Below are positions 1,678 through 61,060 of a stretch of 64,000 nt of DNA, piece by piece. Made by a program: the position numbers and the translations under genes. The notes under the pieces are model-generated. The model saw only the letters and a program-made list of their open reading frames with translations, did no database searches and was not told the DNA's origin. The first letter of the stretch is position 1, and each line of letters begins with the position of its first letter. Source of the DNA: a virus; the IMG/VR virus record IMGVR_UViG_3300023202_000142, positions 64,001-128,000 of that record; one strand, 5' to 3'.

Positions 1678-2148
1678 ATGCGCAACCCAGTACGAGCCAA
1701 GTTCAGAATTCTCAAGAAAACCGTCGACTGGCGAGGCACCGCGATCTACGAATTCGCGCCCGTCCTCAAGGACTCGGACGACGAATCAGAGAACTCGCTG
1801 TTCTGGTCTGCATCCCCATCCGGCGAGATGCAGCTCACCTTCAAAGAGGACCCCAAGCACGACATCGGGGCTTACTACTACCTCGACTTCACCCCCGTCG
1901 AACTCAGCGGACCCCCCAAGGAAGATCCCAGGCAGATCTGGGGCGTCGACAAAGTGACGCGGCACTTCGGCGGCCAAACCGATGTCCGTATGAGCCCGCG
2001 TGGAGGACCGCTGCTGAGCTGGAGTTCGTATTTCCAGGTCCAGATCGATCACGAGAAAACCGAGGCTCACGATTCATTCGGGGACGGGTCTGAGCCGGAC
2101 AATCACTGGACGCTGGACATCACCTTCGCTGAACCCAGTGACGACTAG
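1678..2148 (+). CDS. Hypothetical protein
   Basis: 156-aa ORF with RBS AGGAG; converges on the 2145 gene. Confidence 0.7.
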   Translation: MRNPVRAKFRILKKTVDWRGTAIYEFAPVLKDSDDESENSLFWSASPSGEMQLTFKEDPKHDIGAYYYLDFTPVELSGPPKEDPRQIWGVDKVTRHFGGQTDVRMSPRGGPLLSWSSYFQVQIDHEKTEAHDSFGDGSEPDNHWTLDITFAEPSDD

Positions 2149-3458
2149 GCGGCCTCGGCGCAACCATCGTCTTGCTCCGCCTCTCGTTTCGCCTTGCGGC
2201 GCTCACGCGCCGCCTTGTTGCGGCAGGGGCGGCAGTAGGACTGGGGTTTCGTCCGGTTGTACCGCAGACCAAAGCGCTCATCGACGTTGGCGATTCCGGT
2301 CGCGGTCTCACCGCAGCAGGGGCACTCGGCCTCCATCGGGTCTTCGAGCATCTCCATCACTTCGATCCACGCGGCATCAAATCCGCGACCGGATTTCTCG
2401 GTGACTACTGCCGGGGCGGCGACGAGAAACTCTTCAACAGCCGGGTATCCTTCTCGTCGAGTCCTCAGTTTGACGACGTGGTCTTCAACCTCGCCTCGAC
2501 ATGCAAGTTCCTCGACAACCTCAGCCCGGGAGCCGTCGAAGATCTTCTCGATCTTCCTGCCGGTGTAACCGCGTCGCGTCGCGTCTTTCTTCGAGGGCTT
2601 AAAGACCCGTCGCATCCGATAGACGGCCCAGGGCCGGGCTTCGTCGGTCGACAGTTCTTTGAAGCGCCGCAGCGCCTCGATGTTGCCGGATCGCTCGACC
2701 AGTTCGCGCATCGAACGCGTTTTGAAGAGCTTCATCCGGGGATTGAATCGCAGCGCGATTTCCTCCATCTCCAGGGCCCGGGCAACCTCTTCGGGCTCTT
2801 CCTTCCATCGCGACTGAACTCCACAGTCTGGCCGAGCGAAGGGGCAGAACACGCAGGCCGACTTCCGCCACCGCACTCCGGTAACGCTCTCGATGTAGTC
2901 GACACAGGCAGCACGATCCCAGCCCCAGTCGATCAAGGGGTAGCTGGGCTCACGACCTGGCACGGTTCCGAAGGTCTGGTCCTTCTCGACACGTCGTTCC
3001 TCACCCTTAGCGAAGCCGATGACATGGGTGTAAGGCGCACCATCCAGGAAGCCCTCGATCCATTCATCGAGGACGTACCCCTTGAACTTCAGGCTGCACT
3101 TCCGGGTTCCGCCGGTGGTTGGAATTGTTGCGGCCTCAACCATTTCGTCAGACAGCTTGTAGGCGCCGTCGAGGTGAAGTTCGGTAGGCTCCGTGGAGTC
3201 GTCGAGAACAACGATGCCGTCCGACGTGAATCGGCCGCCCTTGGCGACCTGGACATAACGGATCCCGTGGGCGCGCATGCGCGGGAGTACGTGCTCGCGC
3301 ACGAGCGCGCCCGAGCTGGTGAATTCGTTTCCAGTCATCGACGTAATGACAACCAGTTCGTCGAGCGGACAGGGCCGGGTTTCGGGTTCCTCGATCCAGC
3401 GCAACAGGATGGCTGTGGAGTCGACACCCATGCCGTAGCTGAGTATCACTTGAGTCAT
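2145..3458 (-). CDS. PAPS-reductase-like PP-loop protein with C-terminal Cys4 zinc finger
   Basis: Start reassigned to MTQVILSYGMGVDS (RBS AAGGAGGTAGCG). PP-loop SYGMGVDS, CSLKFK, KSACVFCPF; C-terminal CPCC...YCRPC. Confidence 0.75.
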   Translation of the reverse strand: MTQVILSYGMGVDSTAILLRWIEEPETRPCPLDELVVITSMTGNEFTSSGALVREHVLPRMRAHGIRYVQVAKGGRFTSDGIVVLDDSTEPTELHLDGAYKLSDEMVEAATIPTTGGTRKCSLKFKGYVLDEWIEGFLDGAPYTHVIGFAKGEERRVEKDQTFGTVPGREPSYPLIDWGWDRAACVDYIESVTGVRWRKSACVFCPFARPDCGVQSRWKEEPEEVARALEMEEIALRFNPRMKLFKTRSMRELVERSGNIEALRRFKELSTDEARPWAVYRMRRVFKPSKKDATRRGYTGRKIEKIFDGSRAEVVEELACRGEVEDHVVKLRTRREGYPAVEEFLVAAPAVVTEKSGRGFDAAWIEVMEMLEDPMEAECPCCGETATGIANVDERFGLRYNRTKPQSYCRPCRNKAARERRKAKREAEQDDGCAEAA

Positions 3459-3491
3459 CGCTACCTCCTTTTGTGGGGTCAGTGAGATTGT

Positions 3492-3515
3492 GTGCACAGA
3501 GTGAACTTCAGTCAA
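3492..3515 (-). promoter_or_regulatory. Dyad operator A in a sigma70-like promoter
   Basis: GTGCAC-AGA-GTGAAC at 3492-3506; minus strand TTGACT-N17-CACAAT; lies between divergent genes. Confidence 0.7.
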
Positions 3516-3773: not shown

Positions 3774-4239
3774 GACAGTCTTCCGGGGTTACTTCGAGAT
3801 CCCGGAACAGCATGCGGAGAACAGCTTCCGCGGTCGAAGCCCGATTAGCGGCATCACTGATGATTTCCTCGCCCAACTCGGGATTGTCTGAGAAGTGATC
3901 TCGAACCTTCGCCTTGACCTCTTCGGTCATCACGTTGCCAGCCTTCTCGACCAACTCGCCGAGACGTTCTCGGCCGACATCTGCCCAGTTCATCGCGTTC
4001 TTCGAGCCCCTGCCGCTCAATGAGCCGTCCGCGTTAACGGTCAGCCAGCGTTTCGACTTCTGCCATTCTGAGAAGCCACGGCGACCGCAGGTTCGATACT
4101 TCGAGTTGGGGTAGATTCGCACGACATCGTCACCAGCCCAGACGTTCGCATCGAGCCAGCGCGAGTTGTTGCTCGCCCGGTTGAGTGCGACGAGAACTTC
4201 GCCGTGTCGCTTTCGCTCTGCAACGGTCATGTCGGTCAT
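3748..4239 (-). CDS. Hypothetical protein (cassette gene)
   Basis: Start MTDMTVAERK behind RBS CAGGAGGTAGCG. Confidence 0.7.
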   Translation of the reverse strand: MTDMTVAERKRHGEVLVALNRASNNSRWLDANVWAGDDVVRIYPNSKYRTCGRRGFSEWQKSKRWLTVNADGSLSGRGSKNAMNWADVGRERLGELVEKAGNVMTEEVKAKVRDHFSDNPELGEEIISDAANRASTAEAVLRMLFRDLEVTPEDCLNSDNRSS

Positions 4240-4240
4240 C

Positions 4241-4314
4241 GCTACCTCCTGTCGCGGGAGCGGGGTTGGCTCCCTGGTGCATCTTGATGATGTGCACGCA
4301 TTGCACGATGTCAA
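4241..4314 (-). promoter_or_regulatory. Cassette: promoter, operator B, leader hairpin and RBS
   Basis: TTGACA-N16-CATCAT; GTGCAC-GCA-TTGCAC at 4292-4306; hairpin GGGAGC/GCTCCC at 4256-4274 with CAACCCC loop on the mRNA strand. Confidence 0.75.
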
Positions 4315-4716: not shown

Positions 4717-5046
4717 CTATCGGTCGTATCGAGCCAGTTCGTCAGCCAGCGCTGCCGTTGCCGTTTCGACGGCAACGTGAGCGTCATGCATTCGATCCTC
4801 GAACCCTTCAGCGAGCTTGACGCCTCGCTCGTAGAGATCGGTGTAGGCAGCGGCGTTCTTCACGGCCTCATGGAGGGCGCGACAGGCATCGAACAAGCCG
4901 GGGTTCTCTTCCAGGACCCAGCGGGCAAGAACCCAAACGTTTCGCCAGCCCCACTCCCAGTGGGGCATGGCGCTGAACGCCGCCTCCGAGACGTAGGCGA
5001 CCGCGTTGGTATCCGCAGCCACGGTCATGTTGGTCACTTCGGTCAT
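4717..5046 (-). CDS. Hypothetical protein (cassette gene)
   Basis: Start MTEVTNMTVAA behind RBS GAGGAGGTAGTC. Confidence 0.7.
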   Translation of the reverse strand: MTEVTNMTVAADTNAVAYVSEAAFSAMPHWEWGWRNVWVLARWVLEENPGLFDACRALHEAVKNAAAYTDLYERGVKLAEGFEDRMHDAHVAVETATAALADELARYDR

Positions 5047-5047
5047 G

Positions 5048-5125
5048 ACTACCTCCTCTGAAAACGGGGAGGCGGGGTACCCTCCCCGGGCAAGGACAAT
5101 GTGAACACAGTGCACACACCGTCAA
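5048..5125 (-). promoter_or_regulatory. Cassette: promoter, operator C, leader hairpin and RBS
   Basis: TTGACG -35 at 5120-5125; GTGAAC-ACA-GTGCAC at 5101-5115; 8-bp stem CGGGGAGG/CCTCCCCG at 5065-5088, loop GTACCCCG on the mRNA strand. Confidence 0.75.
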
Positions 5126-5596: not shown

Positions 5597-6595
5597 TTAC
5601 ATGTTCCACTCAGGAGTCATTTCGTCAAGGTCGACCTCTTCATCAGCTTTGACGGCTTCGAGAACCTCGGCCAACGAGAGGTTCTGTCGAAACGTGTGGT
5701 CGATGCGGTCTTCGACCGCGACGTACTCTTCGAGCAACTCCCGGTTGTGCTTCCCGGCGAGCACCAGGGCTTCCTTGGGGGCGAAGATGCAGAACGCGCA
5801 ACTCAGTCGCGGCATCCCCAGGTCGTAGGCCGGGTGGTGGGGAACGCCGGAGGCCCGAATCGTGGCCCAGACCTCGTGCTCCAGCCAGTGCTGAATCGGC
5901 AGCCAGGAGTCGACGTGCTGATTCGAGTTCGACTTCCGGTTCTCGAACTGGGTCTTCTTGGCGCGAGCCGGGGATTCCTCGGCTCGCAGACCCATGCAGT
6001 CCAGAATCCGGCAAGGACGACAGTCAGCCTTCTCGGGGTTCACCTTGCGCCACTCGCGGGCAAGCTGAGTGAAGACCTTGAGGATCGGACCGCGCTTGAA
6101 CTCCGAAGTGCACCAACGAGCGGCCGACGACGGCCAGGCCCCGCGACGCTCCGCGTAGTCCAGGATGTCTCCGTAGGTCTCACCCTTGGAGTAGGTCTTG
6201 CCGTTAACCTTGCAGATTCCACCGATCCTGGACGTCACGATGAAGGGGCACCCGTAAGCTTTGGCCTGTTCTTCGGCCAGCTCGCCGGTTCCCTCCCATT
6301 CGACTTTGCCGAGATCGGCATGAATGACGACGACGCGATCAGCGATGCCAGCATCTGACGCCAACCCGTGGACGTAGTCGAGCATGGCCTGGGAGTCCTT
6401 CCCGCCGGACGACGACACCGCGATGACATCGTACTCGGTGAGGTCGGGAACGACCCCGGCCTCGAACGACTCACCTGCGAAGCAGCGTTTGCAGTACGTG
6501 GAGGGCTTCTCGCCGCCGTACCGAAGCCCGAAGACCTCCCGGCATTCGTCCTTGGTCTCAGCGCGGACACCGCACTTGGGACACTCGTGGTTCAT
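5597..6595 (-). CDS. PAPS-reductase-family PP-loop protein with N-terminal Cys4 zinc finger
   Basis: SSSGGKDSQA PP-loop, HADLG, WCTSEFKRGPI, GLRAEESPAR, RLSCAFC; N-terminal CPKC...YCKRC. Confidence 0.85.
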   Translation of the reverse strand: MNHECPKCGVRAETKDECREVFGLRYGGEKPSTYCKRCFAGESFEAGVVPDLTEYDVIAVSSSGGKDSQAMLDYVHGLASDAGIADRVVVIHADLGKVEWEGTGELAEEQAKAYGCPFIVTSRIGGICKVNGKTYSKGETYGDILDYAERRGAWPSSAARWCTSEFKRGPILKVFTQLAREWRKVNPEKADCRPCRILDCMGLRAEESPARAKKTQFENRKSNSNQHVDSWLPIQHWLEHEVWATIRASGVPHHPAYDLGMPRLSCAFCIFAPKEALVLAGKHNRELLEEYVAVEDRIDHTFRQNLSLAEVLEAVKADEEVDLDEMTPEWNM

Positions 6596-6596
6596 T

Positions 6597-6676
6597 TGCT
6601 ACCTCCGTTGAGAGAGGGGCGGCGGGGTAACCGCCCCGGAACACTTTCAATTTGTGCACGGAGATCACTCTGACAA
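6597..6676 (-). promoter_or_regulatory. Cassette: promoter, operator D, leader hairpin and RBS
   Basis: TTGTCA -35; GTGCAC-GGA-GATCAC at 6654-6668; stem GGGGCGG/CCGCCCC at 6616-6637, loop TTACCCCG on the mRNA strand; RBS GGAGGTAGCAA. Confidence 0.75.
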
Positions 6677-6727: not shown

Positions 6728-6919
6728 TCAGCCGTTGACCTCTTCGACCACGGCTTTCGCGAACTCGGTGGGGTGACAGTGTTTGTTGCAGAACCCCATC
6801 TTGTCGAACTTCGACATTTTCATTACGGGGATTTCGTTGGTCGCTACGAAGTGCTCAAGGTCTTTGAAGTCCTCGTCACTCATGGCGTTGGCGGTGCTTA
6901 CGATCTCTTCGACAGTCAT
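6728..6919 (-). CDS. Small hypothetical protein (cassette gene)
   Basis: 63 aa, RBS CAGGAGGTAGCC. Confidence 0.7.
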   Translation of the reverse strand: MTVEEIVSTANAMSDEDFKDLEHFVATNEIPVMKMSKFDKMGFCNKHCHPTEFAKAVVEEVNG

Positions 6920-6920
6920 G

Positions 6921-6999
6921 GCTACCTCCTGTTGGGATTCCGGGCGGTGGGGTTACCGACCCGGCACCCTGAGTATGTGCACAGATCTCACTCCGTCAA
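6921..6999 (-). promoter_or_regulatory. Cassette: promoter, operator E, leader hairpin and RBS
   Basis: TTGACG-N16-CATACT; GTGCAC-AGA-TCTCAC at 6977-6991; bulged stem at 6940-6964 with AACCCC loop on the mRNA strand. Confidence 0.75.
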
Positions 7000-7966: not shown

Positions 7967-8275
7967 ATGAACGACAAAGACCTTAGATCTCTCCTCGCCG
8001 ACGCCTCTGGCGACCTCTTCGACCTCAAGGCCGAACTCGGTGACGTTATCTACAAGCCCAACCGATGCGCTGTCTACAGGACACCGGGATCCTGGGTTGT
8101 GAAGCTAGTGCTCCGCGGCGCATCCAGACGAGATGAAGTAGACGTCCAGAAGACATTCACGGACGAGTTTCTGTCGGCGTGTATCGAGACGCACGGACCA
8201 GATCTCGCGTTCCAGCTCCTCAAGACGTCGATGCGGAAAATGTTCAGGTCGGAGATCGATCGGGTGATGGCGTAA
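7967..8275 (+). CDS. Hypothetical protein
   Basis: Start MNDKDLRS; 102 aa. Confidence 0.55.
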   Translation: MNDKDLRSLLADASGDLFDLKAELGDVIYKPNRCAVYRTPGSWVVKLVLRGASRRDEVDVQKTFTDEFLSACIETHGPDLAFQLLKTSMRKMFRSEIDRVMA

Positions 8276-8540
8276 CCATTACCTCAACCAGGGCATCCGA
8301 CAAGGTCGTCGCGACCCTCTCTGCCTCTCGTTTCGCCTGATCCTTGTTCAGCGGGGGCATCAAGACCGTTGGTGCGATCTCCAGAGCGTCAGCGATCGCG
8401 TAGAGCGTGGACACCTTGGGGTCACCACCCTCCTCGATGTGGGCGATCGTTGAGTGAGAGACGCCAGCGAGCTTGCCTACAGCGTGCTGGGTCATCCCGC
8501 GATCCATTCTGAGGCCGACCATGGTGTGCGCGAGCTTCAT
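8244..8540 (-). CDS. XRE-family HTH transcriptional regulator
   Basis: LRMDRGMTQHAVGKLAGVSHSTIAHIEEG.DPKVSTLYAIADAL. Confidence 0.9.
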   Translation of the reverse strand: MKLAHTMVGLRMDRGMTQHAVGKLAGVSHSTIAHIEEGGDPKVSTLYAIADALEIAPTVLMPPLNKDQAKREAERVATTLSDALVEVMVTPSPDRSPT

Positions 8541-9788: not shown

Positions 9789-10026
9789 GGTCAACAAACA
9801 CGGGCGTACATGCACCCATGAACGCTCCAACGACATTGTACTCCATCCAGTCAATCGCATCCTCACGATCCCAGTCTTCCCGCTCCATTAAGACCTCGAC
9901 GCATTTGTCGTAGTCGTAAGCGACGACCTCCATCCCGACACGGCGCGCCATGCCGATGATCGCCTTGTCGAGGCCGTCAATGAGGATCGCTTCAGGGTTC
10001 CTTTCCGCGATTTCTTCCTGAGTCAT
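9772..10026 (-). CDS. Conserved phage hypothetical protein
   Basis: DGLDKAIIG...YDYDKCVEVL...A.DWMEYNVVGAFMGACTPVFV, a pattern I recognise from widespread phage hypotheticals. Confidence 0.65.
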   Translation of the reverse strand: MTQEEIAERNPEAILIDGLDKAIIGMARRVGMEVVAYDYDKCVEVLMEREDWDREDAIDWMEYNVVGAFMGACTPVFVDLSIPR

Positions 10027-10297
10027 AGTCGTTCGCGTCCGCAAAGAAGTGTACAACGCCGCCTTCGTAGTCGTATCCAAGACCGTATATCACTTTCACG
10101 AGAGTCTTGAATCCGGTGTTACCGCCGGCCTCGATGCGGTCCAGGGTGTGGACGTGTACGCCGGCGTCGCTTGCTAGGTCCACGCGTGTCTTGCTGGTCA
10201 GGTCTCGCTCGTGCCGAATGAAATCACCGACCTGGACAAGGACGTCATCGCTGGATAACTTGTGCACTCTGTTCACCCGTTCGTCAAGGTGCTCCAT
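9992..10297 (-). CDS. XRE-family HTH protein
   Basis: IRHERDLTSKTRVDLASDAGVHVHTLDRIEAGGNTGFKTLVKVIYGLG. Confidence 0.8.
   Translation of the reverse strand: MEHLDERVNRVHKLSSDDVLVQVGDFIRHERDLTSKTRVDLASDAGVHVHTLDRIEAGGNTGFKTLVKVIYGLGYDYEGGVVHFFADANDYDSGRNRGKEP
10262..10276. promoter_or_regulatory. Dyad operator H
   Basis: GTGCAC-TCT-GTTCAC inside the 5' end of the XRE gene, 20 nt before the divergent HTH-like gene. Confidence 0.6.
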
Positions 10298-10625: not shown

Positions 10626-10860
10626 ATTGGTCTCGGACACGAGCTTCCGCAAAGTCCTCAGCGATGTGCTCATGCATGCCAGCCGTAATGAAGGCCGCGG
10701 TGAGCATATGAAAGGTCATTTTGGCCCGGAAGCTGTTGTCGGTCCGCACATCCTCGACAGGGGTCGCACCCGGGTGCAGTTGTACCTGCAGCGTTTGAGT
10801 TGGGGCCTTTCGTCGTAGTTCACGACCCTGTCTTCGTAGTTCTTGGTAGTCGATGTTCAT
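10585..10860 (-). CDS. Hypothetical protein
   Basis: 91 aa, ATGA overlap with the recombinase stop. Confidence 0.55.
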   Translation of the reverse strand: MNIDYQELRRQGRELRRKAPTQTLQVQLHPGATPVEDVRTDNSFRAKMTFHMLTAAFITAGMHEHIAEDFAEARVRDQFSGSADSGAPGSA

Positions 10861-11531
10861 TCTTCGATGAGACGTTTGACCTGTGTGGGGTGAAACGGCT
10901 TCCCTTTGCGATTTTTCAAGCCGAAGTGAGCCATGGCGCGCGAGATCGATCGGAGCGAGCCCCCTTCTTTTCTGAGCTGCCGCGCAGTTCGGATGGCCTT
11001 CTGTTCGGCCGGATCTTCTATGAGATTGACCCCGTCATCGTCAAGGGCGTACCCGTAGGGGGTTCCGCCACCCGTATACTCTCCACGTGCGCGCTTGCGC
11101 TCCAGCGCTTTGGCGGTCCGCTCCCCAATCACTTTTCGCTCCCACTGCGAGATCGCGATGAGAACGTTGAGTACCAGTTCGCCGGTGGCCGTGCTGGTGT
11201 CGATTTGCTCAGAGATCGAAACGAGCCTGAACTGAGACTCGAAGTAATTCTCCAAAAGGATCGCGAAGTCCTTGACCGAGCGTGTCAGCCGATCGAGTTT
11301 GGCGACGATAACACCGTCGACGTCGCCTGATTTTTTGAGCCGCGTGAGCATTGCTTCCAGCCCCTCCCGGTTCAGGGTCGAGCCGGACACGCCCGCGTCC
11401 ACTTCAACACCGATCAGGTCGTGCTCGAATAGTTTACAGTAGGACCTGATTCGTTCCTCTTGGGCCTCGATGCCTAGCCCAGACTCAGCCTGGGCTTCGG
11501 TCGACACCCGAATGTATCCGATGAGTCTCAT
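10857..11531 (-). CDS. Serine recombinase (resolvase/invertase family)
   Basis: IGYIRVSTEAQ (catalytic Ser), DAGVSG...REGL, VAKLDRLTRS, ERKVIGERT, TPYGY and a C-terminal HTH. Confidence 0.92.
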   Translation of the reverse strand: MRLIGYIRVSTEAQAESGLGIEAQEERIRSYCKLFEHDLIGVEVDAGVSGSTLNREGLEAMLTRLKKSGDVDGVIVAKLDRLTRSVKDFAILLENYFESQFRLVSISEQIDTSTATGELVLNVLIAISQWERKVIGERTAKALERKRARGEYTGGGTPYGYALDDDGVNLIEDPAEQKAIRTARQLRKEGGSLRSISRAMAHFGLKNRKGKPFHPTQVKRLIEE

Positions 11532-11540
11532 CGTGACCTC

Positions 11541-11849
11541 CTATCCAGAACACTTGAGTGCCAGACGGACATCCGATCCGGTGTCTTCGAGGACCACGGC
11601 GAAGGAGTTCCGCGAGGCGAAGCGCCGCCCGGTGTCGGGCGAGACGTTAACAACTCGGAACGAGTAGAGGACCTTGTGAGTGCCGACGCTGTAGAAGAGT
11701 CGACCGCGATCAGCATCTATCTCACTGGCGCAAGCGTCAGAGCCGACGACGAGAGTATCGCCTGCGGAGCGAACGCCGTGAACCCGGTGGGCGAGCCCGA
11801 GCGCTTCGAGCGCTTCGGAAAGAGGGACTGCTTCATCGAACCGTGCCAT
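11541..11849 (-). CDS. Hypothetical protein (cassette gene)
   Basis: 102 aa, RBS CAGGAGGTAGCAA. Confidence 0.7.
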   Translation of the reverse strand: MARFDEAVPLSEALEALGLAHRVHGVRSAGDTLVVGSDACASEIDADRGRLFYSVGTHKVLYSFRVVNVSPDTGRRFASRNSFAVVLEDTGSDVRLALKCSG

Positions 11850-11850
11850 T

Positions 11851-11929
11851 TGCTACCTCCTGGTGAGTGGGAAGGCGGGGTGCCCTTCCCGGTGCATCGA
11901 CAATATGTGCACGCCGTGCACAGTGTCAA
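11851..11929 (-). promoter_or_regulatory. Cassette: promoter, perfect operator I, leader hairpin and RBS
   Basis: TTGACA-N16-CATATT; T-GTGCAC-GCC-GTGCAC-A at 11906-11922; stem GGGAAGG/CCTTCCC at 11869-11890, loop GCACCCCG on the mRNA strand. Confidence 0.8.
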
Positions 11930-13784: not shown

Positions 13785-13828
13785 CGGGAGCAGACGGGTC
13801 CTCCACCCTGTCTGCTCCCGTTTTATTT
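13785..13828 (+). terminator. Rho-independent terminator
   Basis: CGGGAGCAGACGGG / CCCTGTCTGCTCCCG stem followed by TTTTATTT. Confidence 0.8.
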
Positions 13829-14056
13829 GCCGTGTCCCCTTCGAATGATTACCGGAGGCTCGAAGGGCTCTTCCGGCTCGGAGTCTTCGTCACCGCCTGA
13901 GCGTGTCGACCCCAACAACTCCTCGCGGTTAATTGGAATTTCCTTGGGCGCAACGATGCCGATTCGGACCTGACTTCGACGAATCTCGCGCACTTCGATG
14001 GTGATGTCGTCGCCAACCTGGATTCGTTCGCCGACTTTGCGGGTGAGGGTAAGCAT
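13823..14056 (-). CDS. csrA: Carbon storage regulator CsrA/RsmA homolog
   Basis: MLTLTRKVGERIQVGDDITIEV..I..SQVRIGIVAPKEIPINREEL is the CsrA signature. Confidence 0.95.
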   Translation of the reverse strand: MLTLTRKVGERIQVGDDITIEVREIRRSQVRIGIVAPKEIPINREELLGSTRSGGDEDSEPEEPFEPPVIIRRGHGK

Positions 14057-14093: not shown

Positions 14094-14108
14094 GTGCACT
14101 CTGTGTAC
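14094..14108. promoter_or_regulatory. Dyad operator K upstream of csrA
   Basis: GTGCAC-TCT-GTGTAC; a minus-strand TTGACC lies upstream. Confidence 0.6.
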
Positions 14109-14533
14109 TACCTGGAGCGCAGGGGGTCAAGAAAGTCACGGATCAGAATTGCAGGGCTGCCGCTGCAGGGGTACCTGCCCTGCTCCCAGTTGACGACGGT
14201 CTGTTCGGTAACTCCGCAAGCCAAGGCGAAGCTCTTGAGTGTATCGTCGCGCTGAATGCGCACCCATCGAACCGCGATCGGCGCCAGTGGATTTTCCTTC
14301 AGCATCGGTGAGAGGTCGAGGTCCATGTCGATGTGCTCGATGTACTCACGTACGCCCCAGGGCTTCAGAGCACTGTGGTGCCATCTTGTGCACTGATTAC
14401 TCAGGATTTCACCCCTGCTGTAAACATCCGCCCAGACGCGACCTACTGCTGACACGTAGAACGGGCCATAGTATGTGGTTTCGCCATCGAAAATGTACGC
14501 TTGACCGTCTCGCTCAGCGATTCTGAAACGCAT
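14108..14533 (-). CDS. Protein with C-terminal XRE HTH domain
   Basis: VRWVRIQRDDTLKSFALACGVTEQTVVNWEQGRYP. Confidence 0.75.
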   Translation of the reverse strand: MRFRIAERDGQAYIFDGETTYYGPFYVSAVGRVWADVYSRGEILSNQCTRWHHSALKPWGVREYIEHIDMDLDLSPMLKENPLAPIAVRWVRIQRDDTLKSFALACGVTEQTVVNWEQGRYPCSGSPAILIRDFLDPLRSR

Positions 14534-23662: not shown

Positions 23663-25132
23663 ATGGAACTGATTAAGGAAACCTTCAAGGGCGTTGAGAT
23701 CGAGGTAGAGCCTGATGGTTCGTTTCGCTGTCTCGGCCCTGATGGCTGGAAGATGGAGGGTGTCGAACCCCTTGGTCCGACCGAGGCACTTCGGGAGGCC
23801 AGGGTGTTGGCTTCACGGAGGGCGGACAAGGTGGAAGCCGCTGGGGCTGGGTTCGCATTTGAGTGGAATGACGAGCAGCTCGCAGCGATCGAAGCGATGA
23901 TCGACTGGTGGAATAACGGCTCGGAGTCGTTCTTTGGCCTCTTCGGTTACGCCGGGACCGGTAAAACATCGGTGGTTCAGGAGGTCTGTTCGAGGTTGGG
24001 CAGGTCGCAGTTCAATACTGCGATGGCGGCGCCGACGCACAAGGCGGTTGGTGTGCTTGCGCACACGTCTGCATCTCATGGCAGCTCCAGGTACCACTAT
24101 GCCACGCTCCATTCGCTTCTGAAGTTGCGCCCTCAGAAGGTTGAGGGTCGACAGGTGTTTCGTCGTGACCGACCAGACACAACTGCGCCGATCCAGAACT
24201 ATACGCTGGTCGTGCTTGACGAGTGCTCCATGGTCGACGAGGACCTCTGGAAGTACTTGAATGACGAGGTCCAGGAATCGATCTCGCAGATGTTTCAGGC
24301 GCCGATTCGTGTTGTCGTGATGGGGGATCCGCTGCAACTCCCGCCAGTCAACGACACTGGCGATGAGTCGCCGACCTTTGGTGTCGAGTCTCAGGTCACA
24401 CTGTCGGAGGTGATGCGATACGCCGGTGCGGTTGGTGAGGCGGTTGACGAAATCCGCGACAACATCAACTCGCCGAAGCCGTTGATTCCTGGCGATGCCT
24501 CGGACAGTTATGGTCAAATCGTGAACTACGATGCCCGTAACCGCTGGATGGACGACCTCATTGAGAACGCGCGTGTCGACCATTCTGTGAAAGCGTTGGC
24601 GTGGACGAACCGCTCAGTGAACAAAATCAACCGTGATGTTCGCCAGGCGATCTGGGGTCAGGATGTAGATGCGTTTGTCGCGGGCGAGCGCCTGGTCGCT
24701 GTTGAGGCATATGTTCAGCACAACAACGTCGTGCTGCAGACCGAGGCGGAGATCGAGGTTATCGATGCCCAGCAGGACCAGTTTGGCGGGATGGACTGCT
24801 GGGTGTTGCGGGTCTCAAATCTTCACACCGGCGAGGAGGTCAAGGTCTGGACGCTGGAGTCCAGGCAGCGACATGCCCTGGATCGCCAGCTCAAGCGTCT
24901 GGCGAGGGCCAAGAAGTGGGGTGAGTTCTGGCCGCTCAAAGAGAAGTTCGCGGTGTTGCGCCCGCCCTATGCGACGACGGTTCACAAGTCTCAGGGCTCC
25001 ACGTATCGCCAGGTGTATGTCTTACAGTCTGACATCGGCCGGGCAGGTCGCAGGGACAGCTTTCTGCGTAACCGTCTGATGTACGTGGCCTATTCGCGCA
25101 CGTCGAATGGGCTCATGATTTGTCACGACTGA
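23663..25132 (+). CDS. Dda/RecD-like superfamily 1B DNA helicase
   Basis: GYAGTGKT, AAPTHKA, VLDECSMV, GDPLQLPPV, YATTVHKSQGSTY, YVAYSR. Confidence 0.92.
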   Translation: MELIKETFKGVEIEVEPDGSFRCLGPDGWKMEGVEPLGPTEALREARVLASRRADKVEAAGAGFAFEWNDEQLAAIEAMIDWWNNGSESFFGLFGYAGTGKTSVVQEVCSRLGRSQFNTAMAAPTHKAVGVLAHTSASHGSSRYHYATLHSLLKLRPQKVEGRQVFRRDRPDTTAPIQNYTLVVLDECSMVDEDLWKYLNDEVQESISQMFQAPIRVVVMGDPLQLPPVNDTGDESPTFGVESQVTLSEVMRYAGAVGEAVDEIRDNINSPKPLIPGDASDSYGQIVNYDARNRWMDDLIENARVDHSVKALAWTNRSVNKINRDVRQAIWGQDVDAFVAGERLVAVEAYVQHNNVVLQTEAEIEVIDAQQDQFGGMDCWVLRVSNLHTGEEVKVWTLESRQRHALDRQLKRLARAKKWGEFWPLKEKFAVLRPPYATTVHKSQGSTYRQVYVLQSDIGRAGRRDSFLRNRLMYVAYSRTSNGLMICHD

Positions 25133-25136
25133 AATG

Positions 25137-25188
25137 GTGAAGGCTGTGCACTTTTTACCTTGACGGTTGTGAAGCTCGTGCATAAGGT
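25137..25188 (+). promoter_or_regulatory. Promoter with tandem operators M1 and M2
   Basis: GTGAAG-GCT-GTGCAC at 25137-25151; TTGACG(25160)-N17-TAAGGT; GTGAAG-CTC-GTGCAT at 25169-25183. Confidence 0.7.
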
Positions 25189-25194
25189 CTCAGT

Positions 25195-25496
25195 AACGGA
25201 CAGGGACTCAACGCTTCCCATCCTGTCCGGGTTTTGGCCCTTCGGGGCATCGAGTCAGGAGTTGCGTATCTGCGGGAAGAAATGATGAGAGTCTGTAGAG
25301 GGTTAAATCGCTGCATCTTTTCCTTCCGGCCAGCCTTGGCCTTAAAGGGTGCGATGCTACCTCCCCCTTGAAGATCAGACTGGAGTCTCAGGAGCAGCTC
25401 GCCCCTGGACAGGGCCGGACTAACGGGTAGGGGTATCCGCCGTCCCGCGAGCAAACTAGACCCGTCGCCTGCTGGACAGGCGGCGGGTCTTTGTTT
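25195..25496 (+). ncRNA. Putative structured non-coding RNA (about 300 nt)
   Basis: Own promoter and terminator, no credible ORF. Stems CGGACAGG/CCTGTCCG, GCCC-TTCG-GGGC, AGTCTG/CAGACT, ATCGC/GCGAT and CGGGTA-GGGG-TATCCG; G-U pairs favour the plus strand. Confidence 0.6.
25458..25496 (+). terminator. Rho-independent terminator
   Basis: AGACCCGTCGCCTG-CTGGA-CAGGCGGCGGGTCT followed by TTGTTT. Confidence 0.75.
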
Positions 25497-25507: not shown

Positions 25508-26002
25508 ATGAACGTTATCGAGCCAGGTCCGGCGCGAGCGGGTTACATGACCGTGTTTTGCCCGAAGTCGGGCAAACACATTTCGTCGATCCAGTGCGAA
25601 ACGGTCTGTTTCAGCTTTTCGCACTCGTTTGACGCGGCGTGTCGTCATCGTCAGCAGTGTCCGGTGTGGCGTGGCATGGTTGGGATGCGAAACGGTGTGC
25701 TTGAGATGCCCGTGCAGGAGATTACAATGTCAGAAGAACTCACCGAGGCCCAGGAGTCGGCGTTCGATATGCTCGTCGAACTGGGTGGAGACGCGAATTG
25801 GGTGGCCGCGAAGGCGGTCGGCCATCATTCGGCAATCAGGGCGCTGGAGCGTCGGAACGTGATCCAGACCCGTGACATCGACGGAGAGGTTCAGGTCGCC
25901 CTTGCGGGCGTCCTCCTCAACGAGGAGATCGCAGATGCAGCAAGACAAGCAAGAGCAGAAACAGGAGACGCAGGGGCCGACGCCGAAAGTGAAGAGGAGT
26001 AA
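25508..26002 (+). CDS. Hypothetical protein; start uncertain
   Basis: 164-aa ORF with a Cys-rich N-terminal part; a strong RBS (CAGGAG) precedes an internal ATG at 25727. Confidence 0.5.
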   Translation: MNVIEPGPARAGYMTVFCPKSGKHISSIQCETVCFSFSHSFDAACRHRQQCPVWRGMVGMRNGVLEMPVQEITMSEELTEAQESAFDMLVELGGDANWVAAKAVGHHSAIRALERRNVIQTRDIDGEVQVALAGVLLNEEIADAARQARAETGDAGADAESEEE

Positions 26003-58238: not shown

Positions 58239-59920
58239 TGCCGGTGATAGTGTCACAGGTCCTGATTGATGATTCGTCGGACAAAGTTATCTCCGGTGTC
58301 CAGATCTATGATCGTGACAATGGGGGTGTGTTATCAGTTCCTGCCGGATCTTCATTCCCCTCACCTGCGCAACCCGGTGAGCTGTTCTGGCGCACCGATC
58401 TTCAGACGCTCTATCGACGCAATGATGGTGACACTGCTTGGGACTCGGTGTCTGTTGATGACACGACCATAGATCATGGCCAGATCTCTGGCCTCGGTGA
58501 TGATGACCATCCGCAGTACCAAACAGACGTGCGAGCAGATACGTGGCTTGGTACCAAAGATACTGACGACCTCGCGGAGGGCTCGAATCTCTACTACACC
58601 GAGGGGCGTGTTTCTGCGAATTCCGATGTCGCAGCAAATACTTCACACCGGAGTACGACAGGTAACCCGCATTCCACCACCGCTGGAGATGTCGGAGCGG
58701 TTCCGACAAGTGAAAAGGGCGCCGCGAATGGGGTCGCGACGCTGGACGCCGGCGCGAAGGTGCCTGCCGCTCAGATTCCCGCTGTTGCGCTCCCCGAAGT
58801 CTACGTCGTCGCAGACGCCGCTGCGAGAACCGCGCTGAGCGTGCAGGAGGGTGACGAGGCAATCCAGCTTGATGACGGGTCGCACTGGATCTACGACGGC
58901 AGCTCGTGGTTCTTGCGCCCCGGCGTGGCGGTTCCCAATGATACGTTTAACGCGGTCGATACTGTGGGAGGCGTTTCGCTTGACGGTGGTTGGACTGATA
59001 TTCCGTTGACCGTTGTCAACCACGAGACATCGGGATCATTCACATTCAGCGCACCGTCTGCCGACATCACGGTCGAGAACCCCGGCGTCTATGTCATCGC
59101 GGCATACGGAAGCACTGAGAAGACAAGCGGTGGCGACCGTAGTGACTCTGAACTACGGCTGCTCGTCGACACGGGTGGAGGCTACAATGTCGTCTCGGGA
59201 GCGACAGTCCCGATGTACAACCGTAATGGCTCTGAGGGTGACAATAACGCGTCGGTTGTCGTTGCTCTTGATCTGTCTGCTTCGGCTCAGGTGAAGATCC
59301 AGATGCGGACCCTTGGAGGCTCGAATGTCCAGAGTCGGGCGGAAGGTTCGGGTATCACCATTACGTCGACACGGGGACAGAAGGGCGAGAAAGGTGATAC
59401 CGGCGCAGGCTCCAGTGTCAACGTCGAGGACGAGGGCGCAGCGATTGGCGGCGGGCCTCACGACACGCTGAACTTCACGGGCGATCTGGTCAGCGTCTCG
59501 GATGCTGGAAGCGGTCAGGCGGATGTCAGCATTGCGGCACCAGCGAAGGACGATCAACAGGTTTCGGCATCAAGCATCGTCACTGAGACTTCGACGACGG
59601 ATGTCGTGGTGCCGGGCATGTCGATCACGGTTTCGAACTCTGCTGACTATATGCTGTATTTCAGCGGGTTTGCCTCCACAGAGGCCGATGAAGTTCTGTA
59701 TGTCTCGCTCTACATCAATGGTGTGCAGATCGCCGATACTGAGCGTGGAATGAGCGCCCCCGGAGGCGGCCCCGTCAATGATGATGTGCAGGGCACGGTG
59801 GCGATCACATGTCTTAGCGTTGGGGCGACTGCGGGAGACGTAGTTGATGTCCGCTGGCGTGTGAGTGCTGGGAATACCGGTCAATTCGAAGGAAGAACTC
59901 TCACTGTGCTGGAGCGATGA
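58238..59920 (+). CDS. Tail/collar fibre-like protein
   Basis: DDHPQY, GNPHSTTA..VGA, NGVATLD...KVP, a short collagen-like GQKGEKGDTG and beta-sandwich domains. Confidence 0.7.
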   Translation: MPVIVSQVLIDDSSDKVISGVQIYDRDNGGVLSVPAGSSFPSPAQPGELFWRTDLQTLYRRNDGDTAWDSVSVDDTTIDHGQISGLGDDDHPQYQTDVRADTWLGTKDTDDLAEGSNLYYTEGRVSANSDVAANTSHRSTTGNPHSTTAGDVGAVPTSEKGAANGVATLDAGAKVPAAQIPAVALPEVYVVADAAARTALSVQEGDEAIQLDDGSHWIYDGSSWFLRPGVAVPNDTFNAVDTVGGVSLDGGWTDIPLTVVNHETSGSFTFSAPSADITVENPGVYVIAAYGSTEKTSGGDRSDSELRLLVDTGGGYNVVSGATVPMYNRNGSEGDNNASVVVALDLSASAQVKIQMRTLGGSNVQSRAEGSGITITSTRGQKGEKGDTGAGSSVNVEDEGAAIGGGPHDTLNFTGDLVSVSDAGSGQADVSIAAPAKDDQQVSASSIVTETSTTDVVVPGMSITVSNSADYMLYFSGFASTEADEVLYVSLYINGVQIADTERGMSAPGGGPVNDDVQGTVAITCLSVGATAGDVVDVRWRVSAGNTGQFEGRTLTVLER

Positions 59921-61060
59921 ATGGCTGATACCCCTTACGTCTACTCGTTGGCGGGCGACTTCTCGAATGGGGTCAATGCCGGGCGTCTCGATGAGGAAGT
60001 TCGGGCCTCCGATATCGTCGTGGCCCTACGGGGTGTCTCTGTCGCTGGAGATGACGTCACGGTGACGTTCAAAGCGTCGCTTGACAGCTCTGATGAATCC
60101 ATTCTTGACGGTATTGTGGCTGCCCATGATGGCAGTCCTGATGAGCCTGTCCCGGCTCCGGTCGATATTCGCTCGATCACTGCTGACCCTACAGGCGCCT
60201 CGAAACTGGGCGTCAACGTGTTCCCCGCTGAGGGGAGTCGCACGAATTTTATTTCTCACCTCTGGACAGACCCTACGACGTGGTACCAGTCTTCGGTGCG
60301 CGTGGTGGATGAGGTCCCAACACCTCTTGACCCAGACGGCAAACAGTTTCAGCTCGCCAACTCTGATGTGATCGATTCCACTCATGGCAAGCTCTTCATG
60401 GAGGACTTCCTGCTGGATGGTGGCGGGCACTCCTACGCGGTGGAGGTTAAGGTTGACGGTACCCCTGTGCCGATGCAGGACATCGATACAGGAGAAGGCG
60501 ACTGGAGCATAGATTATGCCGCTGGCGTCCTGACGATGAACCCCAACGTACCGAGCGGGGCCACGCTGGAGGTCACGTACCATTACGCCACGGTCTCCAA
60601 GTTCATCATCAAGCCTGACCCCGGAAAAGTGCTGCGCATCAAGTCCGCAGAGGTCCAGTTCAGCCGTAATGTCAGTATGCGGGACACCGTTCAGTTCGAG
60701 TTTTTCGGCTATGCCGCTGCAATCGATCCTGATGGTTTCGCGAATGGAGACTACGGCCCTGATCCCCAGACTTTGATCTACGCAACGACACCGAGTCGCT
60801 ACAAGTCGATCCATAATTTTCTCTCGGAGTCGAATGGTGTCTATCCGATCCTTCCGGCCACATCGAACGATAGCCCCAACGAACACCGGGACATGCGGAA
60901 CGATGTTCTGACGTTCCCGTGGAATTATCAGGCGTCGATCCCTCTCTACTCCTCTGCCGGGATGCAGATTGTGGTCAGCCTGGTGGATGACAGGCCGCTT
61001 GGGGGGGAGTTCGCGACCGCGACGTTTTACTGCTACTCGGAGGATGACCCAAATGCCTGA
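59921..61060 (+). CDS. Hypothetical structural protein
   Basis: 379 aa; WSIDYAAGVLT...TLEVTYHY Ig-like motif. Confidence 0.6.
   Translation: MADTPYVYSLAGDFSNGVNAGRLDEEVRASDIVVALRGVSVAGDDVTVTFKASLDSSDESILDGIVAAHDGSPDEPVPAPVDIRSITADPTGASKLGVNVFPAEGSRTNFISHLWTDPTTWYQSSVRVVDEVPTPLDPDGKQFQLANSDVIDSTHGKLFMEDFLLDGGGHSYAVEVKVDGTPVPMQDIDTGEGDWSIDYAAGVLTMNPNVPSGATLEVTYHYATVSKFIIKPDPGKVLRIKSAEVQFSRNVSMRDTVQFEFFGYAAAIDPDGFANGDYGPDPQTLIYATTPSRYKSIHNFLSESNGVYPILPATSNDSPNEHRDMRNDVLTFPWNYQASIPLYSSAGMQIVVSLVDDRPLGGEFATATFYCYSEDDPNA

Follow-up and report, generated by a model that had tools for sequence, protein, structure and literature searches.

The DNA analysed here, called the window throughout, is a stretch of 64,000 nucleotides corresponding to positions 64001–128000 of a 185,324-nt virus record that belongs to an uncultured phage of ~185 kb. 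It contains T4-like head genes together with RecA-like, primase and helicase genes, and we found no close isolate of this phage: the best DnaB identity was 27% and blastn against isolated phages gave no DNA match. A 375-nt gap lies between a Dda-like helicase gene (23663–25132) and a gene without assigned function (25508–26002). This last gene is a fusion of two domains that form separate genes in one of the phage fragments described below (L122), and has an internal SD-ATG at MSEELT. The phage encodes a CsrA homologue (13823–14056, minus strand; Pfam PF02599, E 8e-20), and HTH genes are found at 8244–8540, 9992–10297 and 14108–14533. Dyads of the GTG-N9-CAC type (consensus GTGCAC-N3-GTGCAC) are located at positions 25137, 23617, 26509, 32933 and 51544 of the window, among ~30 sites genome-wide. 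They appear to be the operators of a genome-wide regulon, one that is kept in relatives too.

The gap contains a sigma70-type promoter on the plus strand (25160–25188), with TTGACG at 25160–25165, a 17-nt spacer and TAAGGT at 25183–25188. One dyad operator of the GTG-N9-CAC class (25137–25151) is located 8 nt before the −35 box and a second one (25169–25183) inside the promoter spacer. They are followed by a candidate non-coding RNA of ~300 nt (25195–25496, plus strand, the 5′ end being placed from the promoter) that closes with an intrinsic terminator (25459–25496), a 13-bp stem plus a U-rich tail that ends ~11 nt ahead of the next gene. The predicted 5′ domain (25197–25279) comprises an 8-bp hairpin, P1 (25197–25204/25222–25229), whose loop pairs with 25252–25256 and 25274–25279 in two pseudoknot helices, and a UUCG hairpin (25237–25248) with C(UUCG)G at 25240–25245. 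In the middle of the RNA there is a hairpin with a 5-bp stem (25345–25369) that carries in its loop the seed GCUACCUCC (25356–25364); this is where the initial annotation had placed GCTACCTCC, which we confirmed. The 3′ domain (25388–25452) has a stem (25388–25392/25404–25408) and a loop (25397–25401) that pairs with 25448–25452, enclosing what we will call the G-loop hairpin (25424–25439), with the sequence GGUAGGGGU. The stem of this hairpin includes a G-U pair that is workable on the plus strand. The promoter, the two dyads, the 8-bp hairpin, the C(UUCG)G tetraloop and the terminator had all been correctly located in the initial annotation.

Protein searches retrieved three syntenic phage fragments (L068, L119 and L120). 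They all have the gap, an upstream operator as far from the −35 box as in the window, the invariant GGUAGGGGU and the terminator, which is conserved with compensatory changes. The promoter elements TTGAC, N17 and TA..T are kept in the four homologues, while the three relatives have a degenerate version of the spacer operator; a spacer operator is present in L122. A covariance model built from the three relatives only found the window element on the plus strand with an E value of 1e-6. The structure drawn by hand for the relatives has 58 pairs and consists of a 5′ hairpin loop forming two pseudoknot helices, a UUCG-type hairpin, the seed hairpin and a 3′ H-type pseudoknot around the G-loop hairpin. 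It was 98% paired with five compensatory pairs, a result that 4 of 500 shuffles reach and with slid controls pairing 36–50%, figures that refer to three sequences and to a structure drawn from those same three. Every helix is also formed by the window RNA with different bases, and the three pseudoknot helices show compensatory changes among the homologues. Thus, the second pseudoknot helix of the 5′ domain is CUUCCC/GGGAAG in the window, CUCUCU/AGAGAG in L068 and L119 and UUCUCU/AGAGAA in L120, and the pseudoknot of the 3′ domain is CAGG/CCUG in the window vs. CAAG/CUUG in the relatives. The sequence of the 5′ domain varies between the window phage and the relatives. The long-range stems that the initial annotation had described as nested are therefore supported by the relatives, but as pseudoknots and not simply as nested stems. 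The window RNA is ~38 nt longer than the others, and the stretch 25296–25329 looks like the seed hairpin region in a second, degenerate copy. This insertion misaligned the 5′ half of the four-way MAFFT alignment, so the RNAalifold structure was not used there.

The fold of the plus strand of the window as a single sequence was not significant (z −1.36), and the structure thus rests on the comparison with the relatives. A minus-strand RNA folds better alone (z −2.94), but the promoter, the terminator, the G-U pairs and the model match favor the plus strand. In partition-function folds the seed was mostly unpaired in all four homologues, while the G-loop was largely unpaired in the three relatives and only partly open in the pseudoknot-free fold of the window RNA. 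As had been anticipated, the ~300 nt contain no credible coding region: no open reading frame (ORF) is conserved across the RNA homologues, a 29-codon plus-strand ORF of the window being absent from the three relatives and a 115-codon minus-strand ORF from L068 and L120. Rfam gave no match at the gathering threshold or at E ≤ 10 for the window and L068, i.e., a known family was not recognized, and ARAGORN and Rfam detected no tRNA, tmRNA, 6S, SRP, RNase P or known ribozyme in the RNA. A brief check of one stretch for a link with CRISPR repeats showed none there, which says little. We are confident that the gap holds a real, conserved and uncatalogued structured RNA gene.

The two loop elements of this RNA are complementary to two boxes that recur in the leaders of a family of genes of the same phage. 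The motif GGAGGTAG was found 28 times genome-wide, 25 of them as GGAGGTAG(C/T) at 0–4 nt before an ATG, i.e., 25 genes start behind GGAGGUAG(C/U). The remaining three sites are one GGAGGTAGA before an ATG, one with no start codon after it and one in antisense orientation in the gap. Similarly, of the 24 copies of GGAGGTAGC in the 185 kb, 23 are at starts and the other one is in the candidate RNA in antisense orientation, and the sole other GGAGGUAGC of the genome lies antisense in the RNA gap. The resulting box B (GGAGGUAGY), complementary to the seed, covers the Shine-Dalgarno (SD) and ends 0–4 nt before the AUG. Box A (consensus R-CCCC-R-C), complementary to the G-loop hairpin, is usually located 4–21 nt upstream of box B, mostly in the loop of a leader hairpin: CCCC was present within 35 nt upstream in 24 of the 25 family leaders vs. 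11 of 102 control ribosome binding sites (RBSs) (p 2e-16). It is present even in members that lack the hairpin or a promoter of their own, so that the tag is two-part and independent of the hairpin. The stems of the leaders vary in sequence and both boxes stay fixed, and the sole one-mismatch box B variant that retains box A is a C-to-U wobble. Most of the 25 leaders have a TTGAC promoter with a GTG-N9-CAC dyad between the −35 and −10 boxes; about a dozen promoters of this class are found without box B.

Six tagged leaders are in the window, all on the minus strand. That of gene 3458 (PAPS-reductase-like; 3456–3515) has promoter and operator, with box A at 3475–3479 and box B at 3460–3468. The others precede genes 4239 (4237–4314; box A 4262–4266 in a hairpin loop, box B 4241–4249), 5046 (5044–5125; box A 5074–5078, box B 5048–5056, whose last base U can wobble-pair with the seed G), 6595 (PAPS-reductase family; 6593–6676; box A 6624–6628, box B 6598–6606), 6919 (6917–6999; box A 6949–6953, box B 6921–6929) and 11849 (11847–11929; box A 11877–11881, box B 11852–11860). 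A further 19 are outside the window. The initial annotation had recognized six of these leaders: the family is real, but its size genome-wide is 25. The ACCCC loops that it described as partners in a kissing interaction fared less well. ACCCC is indeed present in the leader of gene 3458, but with no hairpin there, and since several members lack the hairpin or their own promoter, kissing cannot be general. The tagged target nearest to the RNA is ~13 kb away. The target proteins scanned are mostly unassigned, with two PAPS-reductase-like (2145–3458 and 5597–6595, minus strand, both tagged), and none of them matched head, tail, replication core or antirepressor families. A serine resolvase/recombinase gene (10857–11531, minus strand) is directly downstream of the tagged gene 11849. 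At genome positions 14171 and 7456 (minus strand) there are two leaders with box A and GGAGGCAAC replacing box B, possibly decayed or alternative members.

Given that the complementarity was noticed after the fact, we have compared it with chance in several ways. In the window, GGAGGTAG was observed seven times vs. 1.2 expected, a count that none of 100 shuffles reached. The 9-mer antisense to box B has a Markov expectation of 0.0014 in 260 nt, and an equally good match was obtained with 4 of 1000 shuffles of the RNA. Of 7402 genome windows of 300 nt, 23 contain the antisense of any frequent start-site 9-mer; these 23 correspond to four sites, one of them the candidate RNA and another the antisense of the GGAGGTAGA RBS. 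For the G-loop, the three best separators of family vs. other leaders among ~97 11-mer probes along the RNA were all at 25424–25440, in the G-loop hairpin (p about 4e-12, uncorrected, and scored on the upstream part of the leaders, independent of the seed). Finally, the family leaders occupied all of the top 21 ranks among 436 starts, a ranking in which the seed part is circular and the G-loop part is not. The match between seed and box B exceeds chance after allowing for its post-hoc choice. The G-loop complementarity proposed in the initial annotation was confirmed as well, including the pair workable on the plus strand only and the antiparallel order of the elements.

Another indication that seed and target belong together comes from the relatives, in which the seed is GCUAUCUCC instead of GCUACCUCC. 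In L068 and L119, the two contigs that extend far enough for this comparison, a downstream gene located behind an operator starts at GGAGAUAGC-(A/C)AAUG. Over the 15.3-kb record of L068, GGAGAUAGC is found only at that RBS and antisense in the RNA, a coincidence seen in none of 1000 shuffles. The seed-loop duplex with the L068 target was predicted at −16.6 kcal/mol with its own seed vs. −12.8 with the window seed, and that of the window target at −19.4 kcal/mol with the cognate seed vs. −15.9 with the non-cognate; cognate duplexes were favored for the window, L068/L119 and L121 targets. The host anti-SD pairs over only 4 bp with GGAGAUAGC and cannot account for the covariation of seed and RBS; in the initial annotation, the AGC after GGAGGU, unexplained by the 16S anti-SD, had been taken as a hint of a second partner. 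The window orthologue of the L068 target gene lacks both boxes. Since L068, L119 and L120 share a single seed change, we have counted them as one event.

Two more distant contigs, L121 and L122, have a unit of promoter, structured RNA and terminator upstream of the homologue of the same downstream gene (z −4.0 and −3.3). These RNAs (L122:2433–2717 and L121:735–1174) are different and significantly folded, and close to the 3′ end both have a G-rich loop. The covariance model detects neither of them, and their homology is thus only positional. In L121 the seed is GCUACCUA and a nearby leader has UAGGUAGC (15 of 1000 shuffles), while in L122 the seed CAACCUCU and the leader GGAGGUUG make a weak case (128 of 1000 shuffles) in which the target pairs equally well with the window seed; L122 carries a second seed-like 9-mer, GUUGCCUCC. 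All these relatives are fragments with one candidate target gene each. Taken with that scope, the comparison suggests one well-supported compensatory event between seed and target, one fair (L121) and one weak (L122). The downstream protein has homologues also in L125, L127, L255 and L271, where neither a comparable gap nor a model match was found. Searches for homologous loci with single window proteins, and with P0002 against metagenomes, gave no matches. Besides L068, scans of DNA patterns for leaders and RNA gave only unrelated or chance-like matches, and hence no relative with the full set of leaders was found.

The idea put forward in the initial annotation, that of an RNA from the plus strand acting in trans on a family of leaders through two pairing elements, passed every proposed check that was run: the leaders ranked top among the starts (with the circularity mentioned above), the G-loop was invariant in the four homologues and the seed changed together with the RBS. 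The two conserved elements of the RNA and the two boxes of the leaders are complementary in antiparallel order, the elements being 59–61 nt apart in the RNA (79 in L120), and pairing of the RNA with the 25-member leader family is, judging from these patterns, very probable. The more specific reading that we favor, with a probability that we put at roughly 60%, is that the trans-acting RNA docks at two sites and blocks the translation of an accessory, probably early, regulon. A pseudoknot-stabilised antisense RNA of ~300 nt would be transcribed, as the conserved promoter and terminator and the covarying structure suggest, and its 3′ G-loop would pair in the cell with box A. This docking may extend into the weak stem, which contains G-U, and a bulged A, an extension with which the R and C that follow CCCC are compatible. 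The purine/pyrimidine variation in the boxes could mirror transition bias and not wobble. The seed loop, ~60 nt upstream of the G-loop in the RNA, would then pair with box B, and a helix of 9–10 bp over the SD would block 30S loading and switch off the translation of the whole set. As most target promoters carry the GTG-N9-CAC operator, the RNA would give this same regulon a second lock, or a timer, at the post-transcriptional level, being made while the regulon is repressed or building up alongside it and shutting it off later. It is odd for a simple silencer to share its operator with the targets, as the promoter of the RNA does. The degenerate spacer operator of the relatives, with the upstream one kept, allows the speculation that the RNA may escape repression, or even be activated, at the time the target promoters are shut, although L122 does have a spacer operator.

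The same pairing might have the opposite effect, with the RNA promoting expression by protecting the leaders against the phage CsrA or a nuclease that cuts at the SD, or as an adaptor for ribosome loading. The operator class common to RNA and targets, which might be co-induced, fits such a role, as do the presence of a CsrA gene in the phage and the retention of the match in relatives while the SD weakens (GGAGA in the matched leaders of L068 and L119 and almost no SD in L121). However, the seed covers the SD itself, we know of no precedent for activation through pairing on the SD, and the folds predicted for leaders 11849, 6919 and 5046 show no sequestration of the SD by the box A hairpin, i.e., there is no inhibitory stem to open. 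We consider activation unlikely. We give just as little weight to a guide or scaffold of a ribonucleoprotein, or a catalytic RNA, that would cleave or mark the tagged mRNAs as an RNA-guided counterpart of the timed decay of T4 RegB type. With three pseudoknot helices and a 5′ domain that takes no part in the pairing, the RNA has much more structure than a base-pairing sRNA requires, and the tag is two-part with flexible spacing. On the other hand, no partner protein was identified, no ribozyme family matched, the 5′ domain differs in sequence between the window phage and the relatives and the pseudoknots may merely protect the ends of the RNA.

It is more doubtful still that the complementarity is coincidental, the leader boxes being protein-binding (CsrA- or RegA-like) or recombination (PeSL-like) cassettes and the RNA having another job, e.g., as CsrA sponge. 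In PeSL cassettes, recombination can keep repeated promoter-hairpin-SD units (PMC2839356), the CsrA gene is there, and the boxes of the cluster K mycobacteriophages described below persist with no reverse copy. But coincidence leaves unexplained both the matched change of seed and RBS and the second independent element that matches box A, and the leader stems vary while both boxes are fixed. We have rejected a CsrA sponge of the CsrB/RsmZ type: the homologues contain 9, 4, 2 and 3 GGA, none at a conserved loop position in the alignment, and there was no Rfam match. The weakest proposal makes the gap a leader or attenuator acting in cis on the operon downstream, a short coding sequence or an element of the DNA itself, e.g., an origin; this is very improbable, for in spite of the terminator so close to the next gene, the matched box of one downstream gene in the relatives and the two ORFs of the window, those ORFs are missing in relatives as described, the G-U pairs and the covariation fit a single-stranded plus-strand RNA, the 25 matched sites are scattered over the genome and no conserved antiterminator was found.

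Among known systems, CopA of plasmid R1, the comparison made in the initial annotation, is cis-encoded and fully complementary to a single target, CopT. A first loop-loop contact followed by helix formation is plausible also here, but the candidate RNA is trans-encoded, would form two short separated helices and has several targets without hairpin; full complementarity to the targets on the opposite strand is absent, with only short matches elsewhere in the genome. The c4 RNA of phages P1 and P7, of ~77 nt and with a two-box target (a1b1), is closer. This phage-encoded structured RNA pairs through short complementary sequences, probably in loops, with an RBS region and blocks translation (PMC12197685); c4 (Rfam RF01695) and the c4-a1b1 target motif are listed in PMC2864571. 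Like c4, and the CI RNA of P4, the candidate is a structured phage RNA with short loop elements complementary to the RBS region, its seed and G-loop matching boxes B and A antiparallel near the RBS. Unlike c4, it is ~300 nt long with pseudoknots, has its own promoter and terminator and would act on 25 dispersed mRNAs and not on an ant operon. The covariance model of RF01695 did not match the window or L068 (gathering threshold or E ≤ 10), and we found no immI-type operon and no link to immunity or an antirepressor, the locus being beside a Dda-like helicase. Because these tests of Rfam and context failed, we regard the RNA as probably working like P1 c4 without being a member.

GcvB, RNAIII and AbcR are bacterial sRNAs that act on multiple targets against the SD, a short loop seed pairing with the RBS of many mRNAs. 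In the present case, unlike these, the targets share an almost invariant two-part tag, which apparently co-evolves with the RNA inside one phage genome. The PeSL cassettes of the T4-type phages RB49 and phi1 are repeated units of sigma70 promoter, stem-loop and SD before accessory genes. Their stem-loops, mostly placed in the promoter, serve as terminators or as linkers for recombination, and that study uses neither “antisense” nor “small RNA” as a term (PMC2839356). Here the hairpin is within the transcribed leader, 3′ of the −10 box and without U-tracts, and its loop is invariant. The leaders are similar to these cassettes and more so to the start-associated sequences (SAS/ESAS) of cluster K mycobacteriophages, a conserved box present in 11–19 copies at the RBS of non-structural genes and extending beyond the anti-SD. 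About half of the SAS lie behind inverted-repeat promoters, and an RNA or protein partner has been proposed (PMC3203893; PMC11373665; PMC12699233). Pope et al. described a single SAS copy in the opposite orientation in K1 phages and left the partner open (PMC3203893), and the role of SAS was still ill-defined in 2024–2025 (PMC11373665; PMC12699233).

The likeness is found in the 25 forward copies, the dyad promoters and the single reverse copy. The sequence is different (GGAGGTAGY and not the 13-bp cluster K consensus), and so is the host. In cluster K we saw no equivalent of box A and no covariation of seed and target. The reverse SAS of Anaya is in a 385-nt gap (L260:34683–35067; record 59682–60066), behind a terminator and a conserved promoter (TTGRCG-N17-TAGACT), in a stem-closed loop. 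This gap has matches in 193 records. In the cluster K1 loci compared (L260 and L263–L270) the reverse-SAS element, of ~385 nt, showed no 3′ terminator; it may be a structured RNA or a leader. Anaya, Niklas and Enkosi retain the anti-SAS, Ekdilam and Bryler have an altered form of it, and from Marshawn, Hurricane, Pixie and Omnicron it is absent. Forward SAS matches are found despite the altered or lost anti-SAS, 16–17 in Marshawn and Bryler and 18 in Pixie. As SAS persist where the reverse copy has been lost, such boxes can exist without a complementary RNA, and cluster K may be taken as a partial parallel and also as a caution.

Each of the phage antisense RNAs known to target phage mRNAs controls a single operon, and the literature searched contained no example of a phage with one RNA that controls dozens of its own mRNAs through a co-evolving tag. 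In T4 such a shut-off is known from proteins; if the reading favored here is true, an RNA layer is added to the shut-off of phage accessory genes. A tentative extension, which we consider less likely than the blocking of translation by itself, is an addressable RNA regulon, in which a triple-pseudoknot RNA, possibly an RNP guide, would read a two-part tag that can be placed on any leader and switch 25 genes at once, the alleles of seed and tag, which set the specificity, drifting jointly from phage to phage; the start-associated sequences of mycobacteriophages might be explained on the same principle. For the function of these, open since 2011, the finding offers a concrete hypothesis that can be put to the test with K1 phages in culture, whose single reverse copy is found in an intergenic element with a promoter. 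The natural alleles of seed and tag could also serve as orthogonal translation switches.
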